Shown in pieces: positions 18,287-22,000 of a DNA stretch of 64,000 bases. The DNA comes from Eledone cirrhosa (taxonomy: Eukaryota). Numbering within the stretch: the first letter of the stretch is position 1; each line of letters opens with the position of its first letter. Location: the NCBI GenBank assembly GCA_964016885.1, contig OZ024742.1, positions 147,250,001 through 147,314,000 on the forward strand, written 5' to 3'. The notes beneath the pieces are model-generated. The model saw only the letters and a program-made list of their open reading frames with translations. It had not been told where the DNA came from and did not search any database. The position numbers and the translations under genes are program-made.

Positions 18287-18496
18287 TGCAACGGGTCACT
18301 TTGTGGCTCAATGAAAAGTTAATAAATTAAATAATCAGAGCTATATATCATAAAACATGTCTATAGAATCACCAGATAATATATATTTTATCTGGTATAT
18401 ATTTTATCTGGTGATTCTATAGACATGTTTTATGATATATAGCTCTGATTATTTAATTTATTAACTTTTCATTGAGCCACAAAGTGACCCGTTGCA
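18287..18496. repeat. Palindrome with arms of about 93 bp
   Basis: 18287-18379 is the reverse complement of 18404-18496; part recurs directly at 19282-19330. Confidence 0.95.
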
Positions 18497-18978
18497 CACG
18501 TATATGTATATATATATGTATATATATATATATGTATATATATATATATGTATATATATATATATGTATATATATATGTATATATATATATATGTATATA
18601 TATATATATGTATATATATATATATGTATATATATATATATGTATATATATATATATGTATATATATATATATGTATATATATATATATATGTATATATA
18701 TATATATATATGTATATATATATATATATATATGTATATATATATATATATCTATATATATATATATATATGTAAACCTTTATATGTAATAATCTCCCGT
18801 TAGGTTGAGATACAAATTTGGCTGTATTGTGCTGTGCTTTCTAGCAAAAAGCCACCAGCCGTAAGCAACTAACCACACTCCTTCCAACCTGACCGCTGTT
18901 ACATCACGATTCTTAGCCATTTTTTAATGTATTCTTGGCGCGATCACTTTGGAAAATTTATTGTCTAGATTTGAGCAA

Positions 18979-19053
18979 ACTCCTGAAGAGTCCGGTGCTC
19001 GAGTTTCCGAAGTTATCGGAAATCTTAAAATGCATACGAAACCATGGTCGGGT
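18979..19053 (+). ncRNA. Type I hammerhead ribozyme with extended stem II
   Basis: ACUC-CUGAAGA-GU...AC-GAAAC-CAUG-GUC-GGGU followed by AAAUAAA. Confidence 0.8.
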
Positions 19054-22000
19054 AAATAAATGTATTCTCTTTTCTCCTAGTTTATTTTACACCTAATTCT
19101 GTTTAATTGACTGTATATCTGGGCGATTACGCTGTCGAAATATTCGATAAATATTCCGTCGTAGCCAGCATGAAGGGCTGGTTTCGGTTATTTGTTGGAG
19201 ATTTCTTCATAGAAGCCTTATTCTTATAGCCTGGTCTATTCAATTTTTTATATGGTTAATTATGCTAATTGGGAGAGGAAATGGTATATATTTTATCTGG
19301 TGATTCTATAGACATGTTTTATGATATATATATATACATATATATATATATATATACATATATATATATATATATACACATATATATATGTGTGTGTGTG
19401 TGTGTGTGTGTAAAAGGTAAACAGAAATAACAACACAATTGGTACAGTATATGGAAGGGATATATTAGCTTAACGCTTGATATAGCAGGAAGAGGGTCTA
19501 TATATATATATATATATACACATATATATCAATATCATTATCATCATCATCATCATCATCCTTTTCTCATCATTTTCATCATTTTTACATCCCTTTTCCA
19601 TATAGGCATGGGTTGTATGAATTGTAACAGTTCAAGACCTGTTTTTGCTCATTATGTTTCATAATTGACATGGTTTCTATAGCTGGATGCCCTTCCTAAC
19701 ATCAATATATAATACGTAATATAATTTATACCAGCATGAAAAGCAGACATAAAAGGATGATGATGAATCAGAATATATTTAATGAAGAGAAAGCTTTTAG
19801 TACCACCCAGATATTCTATCAATAAAACTTCCATATTATGTCAGTTGTAAATATTGATTTGGTCAGATGTTTAAACTGGTAACTAAAATTTCATTTGTTT
19901 ATTTGATATATCTATAATAAATAAAAATCTATGCTGTCAAGTCATGACTGCTCATCATCCTGTAGATGATGTATGACACAGGATTTTCTGGAAAAGAAGG
20001 ATAATACATTGTATTAATTTTATGTTATTTCTTCTGAGTAGATACTCAAGATCTGATTCTATTGATTTGTAACCTAGGCACAATACCTCACATTTTATCA
20101 TCATCATCATCCTCATCATCATGTTTTAATGTCTACTTTCCTTGCTAGCAAGGGTTGGATGAGTCTACACAGACCTAGTCAGTACTAAAGTGAGGCTACT
20201 GACCTCAATCCTAGGCTGGCCTGGGATCTGCATCTCATTTAGGTACAGTCTCACAGGAGAGGTTGTCATATCTTTAACATGATTGAAGGTTCTTTCCAAA
20301 CCTGTAGTTAAAAAAGGTTAAAGTTTGTCCCAAGCCCAAAACCTCACCAGGCTGAAGATTATCTTGGTTTCATTGGTGTTTAACCCTTTAGCATTTAAAC
20401 CGGACTTATTCAGCCAGAATTCTCTCACCTCTTTCTGTTCAAACTGGCCATAACTGGCCACTCATACTGATATTAAGGTATTGTTTTCAAAATAAATAAT
20501 ATCAAAATCTCATAGATTCGATATTGTGTGAGATAATTATGTGAATATACCATGAAAATACACTAGTAAATATATACGTAATGTAAATGCTAAAGGGTAA
20601 GCAACTGAGAGTACAAGACTTCTTCCTGAACATGACACCAGCCTTTTGCAGAGTTAAGCCCCAGCTGCCCCACTGGTACTCATCTTCAACTGGTCCGTGA
20701 ATTGAACTCATAGCATTATGATCCTAATCCCAACCCTCTAATCACTAGGCAATGCACCAGATTTGTAGGGTGGGAAATATTAGATTATATTGATACCAGC
20801 ACCAGTACCAGATTTACATATGAACTAAGTGGGTTGCAGCACAAGGCTTCATAGTCCTTGATAAATTATATACATATACACATCATCATCATCATCATCA
20901 TCATCATCAAGCAAATGAAGAGTAGGGGGTGGTGAAGGAGGAGAAGAAGAAGAAGAAGAAGTTTACGTTATAGACTGACTATGAAGGATTGATGCTAGAA
21001 CTGAAATCTTGCATGCATTAATTTCAACTCTTATTAATAACTGCATTGTTTCTTTCCAGGGACTCTGTTAAAAAACAAACCTCATTTGATCATTCCATGA
21101 GAGTATCTTGGTCAACATATGAACTTTTCACTTGACCCTTGTATGTATGTGCATATGTATGTATATGTATGTGTTCATAACTGTGTTTATGTTTGTGTTT
21201 GTGTCTGGGTATATTTCTCATAACTTAGCAGTTCGACAAAAAAAGACTGATAAATTAAGTACCAATAAAAAAAATTAAAAACAAGTATGAGGGTCGATAT
21301 GAATGACTAAATCCCTTTAATCCAGTATGGCTGCAGTCAAATGACTGAAACCAGGAAAATAATAAAAGAATGCATTAAAAAATCTATAGATTTTCAAGAG
21401 AACATAGTATTATTATTATCTGGTTTGATGTCCTAATAGTTATTTCATCAATAACTGTTAAATAACAATGGTGAATGATGACTTGGAAAGACAAGTTTGA
21501 GAATGAAATAAAGCAAGCTTTGAAGTTAGCTGAGAAGTTAAGACTGAATGATAAACAGATACAAAATATAGATTGTTTTTAAACATATCGGGACATCTTT
21601 TGATAGACAGGAAGACCTTTGTTTCTCTCAAACACCAGCCATCCTACTATTGTGTAGGAATGTGTAAGCATGTGTATGTGTGTGTGTAATAGGTTTTCCC
21701 ATACAACTATAAGCATGCACGCACATCATCATCATCATCATCATTTTTGCATCCATTTTTCCACGCTTGCATGGATTGATTTACATAGATATATGTATGT
21801 ATATATATATATATATATAAACGTTTGAATATGTGTAATAAGGCCAAAACAATGCAATCAATATCTTTTACCATTGCATTCTTTTTTCTATGTCCATACC
21901 TGCATTGTTTTGGCCTTATTACACATATTCAAACGTTTATACCTCATTACACAATGCTTCAAGTGAACTATAACCTCCTCCTCCCATATATATATATATA

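Follow-up and report, generated by a model that had tools for sequence, protein, structure and literature searches.

What is a perfect palindrome doing next to a TA tract and a hammerhead ribozyme motif at 18287-19330 of the window (the whole stretch of 64,000 nucleotides that we analyzed), and how did these parts come to lie together? We consider it very probable that this stretch is one insertion of a many-copy, non-coding hammerhead repeat, likely a non-autonomous Penelope-like element (PLE) of the retrozyme type, and likely placed into (TA)n by the RT/GIY-YIG protein of an autonomous PLE. The element class, the hammerheads of pLTRs and the inverted-plus-tail layout have all been published already, and the window copy itself is ordinary retroelement debris.

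Organization of the insertion and its repeat family

The arms of the palindrome (18287-18379 and 18404-18496) are 93 bp long and complementary without a mismatch, and a TA-rich tract (18497-18775) comes after the direct arm, as a preliminary description of the locus had stated. A 16-nt duplication occupies the loop between the arms (18380-18412). The same description had the body ending in a direct copy of the palindrome; the copy is real, with 19282-19330 identical (100%) to 18393-18441, but its length is only 49 nt.

For comparison we used a reference unit taken from the tandem locus L018. The unit measures 662 nt head to tail, has a GC content of 35%, and consists of a body, a tail and a TA-rich spacer. 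Read against this unit, the window copy contains in order an inverted arm (unit 513 onward), a direct arm (509-612), an expanded spacer and unit 1-557 (Table 1). Arm, TA spacer and body are a single 662-nt unit in partial tandem, the product of one insertion. The (TA)n is the internal spacer of the unit, expanded in the window copy, where it gives a 310-nt match including anchors, whereas most tandems have 55-99 nt. The palindrome is due to a second arm, inverted and 5'-truncated, which is not the same from one insertion to the next, and there is no fixed terminal repeat. The arms proposed as terminal repeats do exist, but their extent varies per insertion, and 54 of 110 insertion clusters are not simple head-to-head inversions. 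Whether palindrome and body are linked in other copies had been left to a genome comparison; arm and body were contiguous in all 30 of the best family loci. The proposal of a pLTR-like architecture without coding sequence agrees with the partial tandem and with the reading frames, neither the 662-nt unit nor the window copy containing a complex ORF or an RT plus GIY-YIG ORF.

Table 1. Features of the insertion and of the elements upstream of it, in window coordinates
Feature	Position	Strand	Basis or remark
RT-encoding LINE fragment; its TA tail houses the PLE stump	16401..17777	+	open frame of 458 aa; RVT_1 E 9.8e-32
Head-to-head 3' stump of an ORF-bearing PLE family (as in L154, L160), 197-bp arms	17807..18279	.	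short end left, long end (tail) right
Minimal hammerheads on the arms of the PLE stump	17930-17966; 18042-18078	minus; plus	
Inverted 5'-truncated arm (unit 513 onward) with tail; outer end enters TA (long end)	18263..18386	-	blastn to unit 98% over 18283-18386; extra 22-nt pairing 18263-18284; end sequence
Head-to-head junction with 16-nt duplication	18380..18412	.	junction gap 6 nt
Direct partial unit (unit 509-612), 3' end of body plus tail, pLTR-like partial tandem	18393..18496	+	unit comparison
TA-rich spacer, internal to the unit, expanded here	18497..18775	+	spacer comparison with tandems
Unit positions 1-557, non-coding body up to the short end site	18776..19330	+	95.5% to reference unit; no complex ORF
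Type I hammerhead motif (stem II of 48 nt, stem III palindromic), cleavage predicted after 19049; base of stem II damaged at 19034-19035	18979..19053	+	motif and family comparison
49-nt direct copy of the arm start; stops at short end, enters (TA)n	19282..19330	+	repeat comparison

The body is a dispersed repeat in the 3.0-Gb assembly that we searched, whose repeat landscape appears to be of octopod type, with 3,211 first-look candidates, 40 of which were scored; the best full-length copies are 95-97% identical. A 21-mer from the tail side, near the 3' end, had 1,365 exact matches in the genome and its control had 0. A 21-mer from the hammerhead had 41, a scarcity due to 5' truncation and subfamily variation. 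Seven distinct tandem pairs with two intact cores were found among loci L001-L130, and the window copy itself has a single hammerhead, which is damaged. The two full units of one young insertion (L017) are identical over 616/616 nt. At least five homologous non-coding hammerhead families (A-E) are present, the window copy belonging to A, with D and E more distant. Further tandem families of approximately 626 nt have in common with A-E only a motif in the tail at the short end, and all of them together can be placed in one superfamily (loci L119, L162, L170, L203, L288, L130 and L106). A description of the family was not found in the published literature that we searched, and Repbase, Dfam or preprint supplements may hold one; the word 'hammerhead' is absent from the main text of the Octopus vulgaris repeat paper (PMC13282606). 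Two near-identical arrays lie approximately 12 kb apart on contig C2 (L026 and L044), one of them interrupted by other DNA, representing a local duplication.

The hammerhead motif

Stem I of the motif is formed by 18979-18982 with 19050-19053, and the conserved core sequences are CTGAAGA at 18983 and GAAA at 19038. Between them lies a stem II region of 48 nt (18990-19037) with an inner hairpin at 19004-19022, and the GUC site predicts cleavage after 19049. Stem III extends just 2 bp past the A-U pair and lies within an 8-nt palindrome, making it of the dimer type; by published accounts, a short palindromic helix III distinguishes hammerheads that work in dimer form (PMC4209133). At the base of stem II the window copy reads GCATAC in place of the family sequence GCGGAC (two substitutions), and 1 nt is missing after the cut site. 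Rfam found nothing at the gathering score in the whole window, and at E<=10 over 17700-19500 it gave 70 matches, which were to hairpins and microsatellites and included no hammerhead. A loose hammerhead descriptor matched 3 times in 64 kb, counting both strands; these few matches and the family-wide conservation of the motif indicate that the window hammerhead is not a chance occurrence. The preliminary description called it a canonical GUC-site hammerhead with a stem II hairpin. Motif, cut site and hairpin are all in place, but 'canonical' is too strong for a motif with a 2-bp stem III of the dimer type. The window copy is likely dead because its one hammerhead is damaged.

We examined the motif in 74 distinct family-A copies, chosen for an intact core. 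Each of the five stem II pairs is retained in 61-70 of these copies and each of the first three stem I pairs in 69-71, and the cut triplet is GUA in 42, GUC in 30 and GUU in 2. The sister families B and C, approximately 70% identical to A, keep the core and have stem I and stem II pairs that are changed on both sides; family C has a 10-nt stem III palindrome in place of the 8-nt one, perfect in 3 of 5 copies. In an alignment of 24 sequences 92% of cells are paired, compared to 29-39% in slid controls, and 3 pairs are changed on both sides, counts of covariation that come from sequences selected for an intact core, are inflated by relatedness and include a family C row misaligned on its 3' side. 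These comparisons indicate that the hammerhead core is maintained with compensatory changes across sister families at approximately 70% identity. In none of the six sequences that were folded, four of them from family A, is the active hammerhead structure the one of lowest energy; the gap is 7.8 kcal/mol for the window copy and 2.0-4.8 kcal/mol for the three other family-A copies. Folding of the monomer is modest (z of -1.75 as a linear and -1.72 as a circular molecule), with 59% of bases paired.

Insertion ends and the origin of the inverted arm

Insertion ends were determined at 115 loci, 45 from body or hammerhead matches and 70 from tail matches (most of the first 100 tail matches listed, ordered along contig C1), which resolved into 110 clusters. 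The 3' ends of family A are fixed and the 5' ends are ragged. There are two 3' ends: a short end at unit position 557 and a long end at approximately 671, after the tail and spacer, so that the two sites lie approximately 114 nt apart. The long end is mostly found about 9 nt into the next unit and sometimes within the spacer or a CA tract. A single orientation is seen in 52 clusters (short end in 33, long in 16, other in 3); another 56 are head to head, and the last 2 are complex. Eleven of the 56 were set aside, one outer end being broken or continuing into another unit. The 45 inverted insertions that could be classified comprise 44 with one short and one long end, including the window copy, a single long+long and no short+short. 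The sole long+long insertion, L044, seems to have arisen by duplication of L026 and has other DNA within it.

The same pairing of ends was found in other families of this genome. As controls, two ORF-bearing PLE families had short+long ends in 5/5 and 2/2 cases, and a Neptune-like element in L093 had them as judged by eye. The non-coding sister families had short+long ends in 9/9 E loci and 4/4 C loci, after removal of duplicate rows and one mixed locus and with three C rows of intermediate end left unclassed. Families A, C and E have tails of approximately 110 nt, and the tails of three families with an ORF measure about 41, 50 and 93 nt. Partial tandems are common, and the targets are TA tracts: at least four further TA follow 34 of 50 short ends, and most of the others are followed by shorter or mixed TA. 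Target-site duplications are unreadable inside such tracts. Junction gaps at the head-to-head joins are mostly from -7 to +6 nt, and the arms of other inverted copies have diverged to 91-98%. The 5' ends show no pile-up at the hammerhead cut site, with 1 of 153 within 273-277 and 7 within 270-290 where 3.45 were expected (p 0.06). A cleaved linear monomer was rejected as the template on this basis, pointing to a circle or an uncut multimer.

These ends can be related to what is known of PLE integration. PLE insertions are described as partial tandems with an inverted, 5'-truncated copy and often a tail at one end only (PMC8557442; PMC3846280). For one PLE, the purified protein is predicted to form a dimer; on AT-rich DNA it cleaves and extends the two strands, with internal initiation at two sites delimiting the tail (PMC11167929). 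According to earlier proposals, retrozymes derive from PLEs and are non-autonomous (PMC7229834; bioRxiv 10.64898/2026.07.22.740005), and self-cleavage was reported for just 1 of the 9 retrozyme dimers tested by Li et al. (bioRxiv 10.64898/2026.07.22.740005). In the mechanism that we propose, a locus of two or more units would be transcribed and paired hammerheads would cut as a dimer via the palindromic stem III, yielding unit-length RNA that may circularize. A PLE protein dimer would cut both strands of the TA tract, and reverse transcription would start internally, at one site per target end, where the RNA has an ATATA that matches the target. Head-to-head joining of the two truncated cDNAs would follow. 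In the window, the cDNA from the long start would have ended after approximately 125 nt, giving the inverted arm, and that from the short start would have run for 1.07 units, giving arm, spacer and body. The end rule agrees with one start at each end of the target and subsequent joining of the cDNAs head to head. Weighing against the overall reading are the active fold lying above the minimum, the modest folding of the monomer, the lack of a 5' pile-up at the cut site, the 1 in 9 result of Li et al., the length of the tail and the failure to find a homologous autonomous partner among the PLE families inspected. In its fullest form, which we advance tentatively and would not yet call probable, the model is one of a protein-free hammerhead-circle superfamily whose retrotransposition depends on a Penelope-type dimer, the dimer initiating both cDNAs on a single circular RNA at internal sites approximately 110 nt apart. 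If this is true, internal initiation explains how an RNA without a free end is inserted, and the near-invariant one-short-one-long rule is a genomic record of obligatory twin initiation and direct mechanistic evidence for the retrozyme-PLE link.

Within the same element class, the inverted arm might instead derive from self-priming or fold-back of one cDNA, or be made on an antisense template. We regard this origin as unlikely, though it has several observations to its credit: self-priming was proposed for PLE palindromes (PMC3846280), one side contains all of the other's sequence in 39 of 44 cases, the long arm extends further in 14 of 21 single-unit pairs, and the arms are usually among each other's closest relatives. 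What it does not lead one to expect is the complete lack of short+short pairs, nor the 11 cases, that of the window included, in which a single long arm passes the short site without stopping. In addition, in 5 of the 21 single-unit pairs the short arm extends beyond the long arm on the 5' side by more than 10 nt, so that each arm has unique sequence, a pattern that a later asymmetric central deletion could mimic. Alternatively, the RNA that is copied could be an uncut transcript reading through a tandem locus, with no circle and with the hammerhead a relic or active in another step. This we consider a real possibility, if short of a probable one. The core and helices are conserved across families only about 70% identical, which argues against a relic, and arrays that are always truncated on insertion would need some way of regaining units; on the other hand, copies routinely cross the cut site, the monomer folds weakly, and for the anole PLE the main substrate is uncut RNA and hammerhead mutants were still inserted (PMC11167929). 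The 616/616 nt identity in L017 fits a circle, though a young source array fits equally. Between circle and uncut multimer we prefer the circle by a small margin, in view of the conserved ribozyme and of the need to regain units.

Two further explanations dispense with PLE-type insertion. A non-autonomous DNA element with terminal inverted repeats (MITE or fold-back type), or else a SINE mobilized by the neighboring LINE, with the hammerhead incidental, would account for a perfect palindrome flanked by TA and for the LINE fragment that encodes an RT 0.5 kb upstream. The end analysis largely refutes this reading: the inversion is at one end, varies in extent and is missing in about half of the clusters, and the ends are polar, with the 3' end fixed and the 5' end ragged. 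For the SINE, moreover, another element separates the LINE from the hammerhead element, and a direct junction with this LINE occurs in one locus only (L064). Overall we find such an origin highly improbable. That the palindrome is an assembly artefact from a fold-back read is scarcely credible, even with 93-bp arms that are perfect and a second palindrome that adjoins them, for the direct arm is without 3 nt that are present in the inverted arm just past the 93 bp, the junction carries the 16-nt duplication, and other inverted copies have arms at 91-98% and follow the biological end rule.

Relation to PLEs and retrozymes

In common with metazoan non-LTR retrozymes (PMC7229834; bioRxiv 10.64898/2026.07.22.740005), family A has a non-coding tandem unit with one type I hammerhead per unit, a low GC content, no LTR features seen and PLEs resident in the same genome, and its 662 nt fall within the 51-972 bp range of Li et al. 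(bioRxiv 10.64898/2026.07.22.740005). The unit is longer than the invertebrate units of 170-400 nt, however, and its stem II region is 48 nt. Family A is found mostly as dispersed insertions of 0.1-3 units, not as long arrays, and has a clear PLE tail and inverted arms, which the available retrozyme texts do not describe; the word 'inverted' occurs 0 times in that of PMC7229834. Retrozyme circles are characterized as 'highly self-paired' (PMC7229834), whereas the family A monomer folds modestly. Judged by sequence features, the family can be classed as a putative metazoan non-LTR retrozyme, a class assignment that calls for two units, which the window copy alone does not have.

The insertions resemble those of EN-bearing PLEs in their partial tandems, head-to-head inverted 5'-truncated copy, one-end tail and (TA)n targets (PMC8557442; PMC3846280; PMC11167929), and the short palindromic helix III resembles that of the pLTR hammerheads of PLEs (PMC4209133). 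PLE clades with an N-terminal EN are reported to lack canonical hammerheads (PMC8557442). Compared to published PLEs, the unit has no ORF and its tail is approximately 110 nt instead of 30-40 nt. The putatively non-autonomous Chlamys PLEs, such as MRC1, are likewise non-coding PLE derivatives with pLTRs and head-to-tail insertions (PMC8557442); those are green-algal and their 3' end generally resembles that of an autonomous family, whereas no such partner was found here. The unit reads as a PLE pLTR moved in trans, and family A likely represents a new family of non-autonomous, PLE-mobilized, retrozyme-like elements, marked by a stem II of 48 nt and a long tail. So far the link between retrozymes and PLEs has drawn on motifs in common, co-occurrence and pLTR trees; in family A, the PLE insertion signature itself is found on a hammerhead repeat that is non-coding. 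The 44/45 end rule bears on how PLEs build inverted pLTRs and tails, and the unit, being short, young and without an ORF and having both start sites mapped, would make a handy RNA substrate for the existing in vitro PLE assay.

Candidates for an autonomous partner are abundant in the genome, with 10,597 candidate PLE GIY-YIG domains, and the genome contains RT plus GIY-YIG ORFs that have hammerhead motifs and tails of their own. We inspected 20 GIY-YIG loci and 20 wider regions of the 150 listed, and one family that is Neptune-like by its motifs, using sensitive DNA comparisons. Among the approximately 10 ORF-bearing PLE families inspected, none had a homologous pLTR or tail or extended sequence shared with the unit, and the comparisons gave only more non-coding sister families. 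The best architectural match to the non-coding families is the Neptune-like family, represented by a nearly full PLE (L093:2050-6390) whose hammerhead has a stem II region of 36 nt and which also has an inverted pLTR and a tail of 93 nt; it is without sequence homology to them and is a lead only. A lead of the same standing is a short end motif common to the unit and the PLE family in L162. A PLE ORF beside a sister-family pair in L162 was rejected as partner, being a separate insertion behind a TA tract.

In several loci (L017/L018, L056, L073, L119 and L115) family A is joined head to head or in line to unrelated PLE or sister families with no TA between. Such mixed junctions represent either two different RNAs in one insertion event or a later deletion. 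They were rejected as pointers to a partner: the family is a different one each time, and 2 of the 4 with readable ends are long+long. One PLE family (L151, L152, L159 and L163) has pLTR hammerheads with a U3-A8 core variant, as reported for Schistosoma (PMC4209133).

The insertion abuts the TA end of the PLE stump at 17807-18279, which is likely to have been its target. From the nesting, the order of insertion was presumably LINE, PLE stump, hammerhead element. The LINE fragment at 16401..17777 is RTE-like by its motifs. Elsewhere in the window, 21816-21982 is a small head-to-head stump of the L162 PLE family, which also has a short end and a long end. Two PLE families are represented by large copies, broken in part, at 36557-42634 and 2259-3676, with RT-like frames at 37299-38510 (plus) and 3251-3760 (minus). 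Downstream of the insertion, an 87-nt piece of another repeat lies between TA tracts (19412-19498); its longer copies in the window (at approximately 50328 and 22559) have a hammerhead-like core on the opposite strand.
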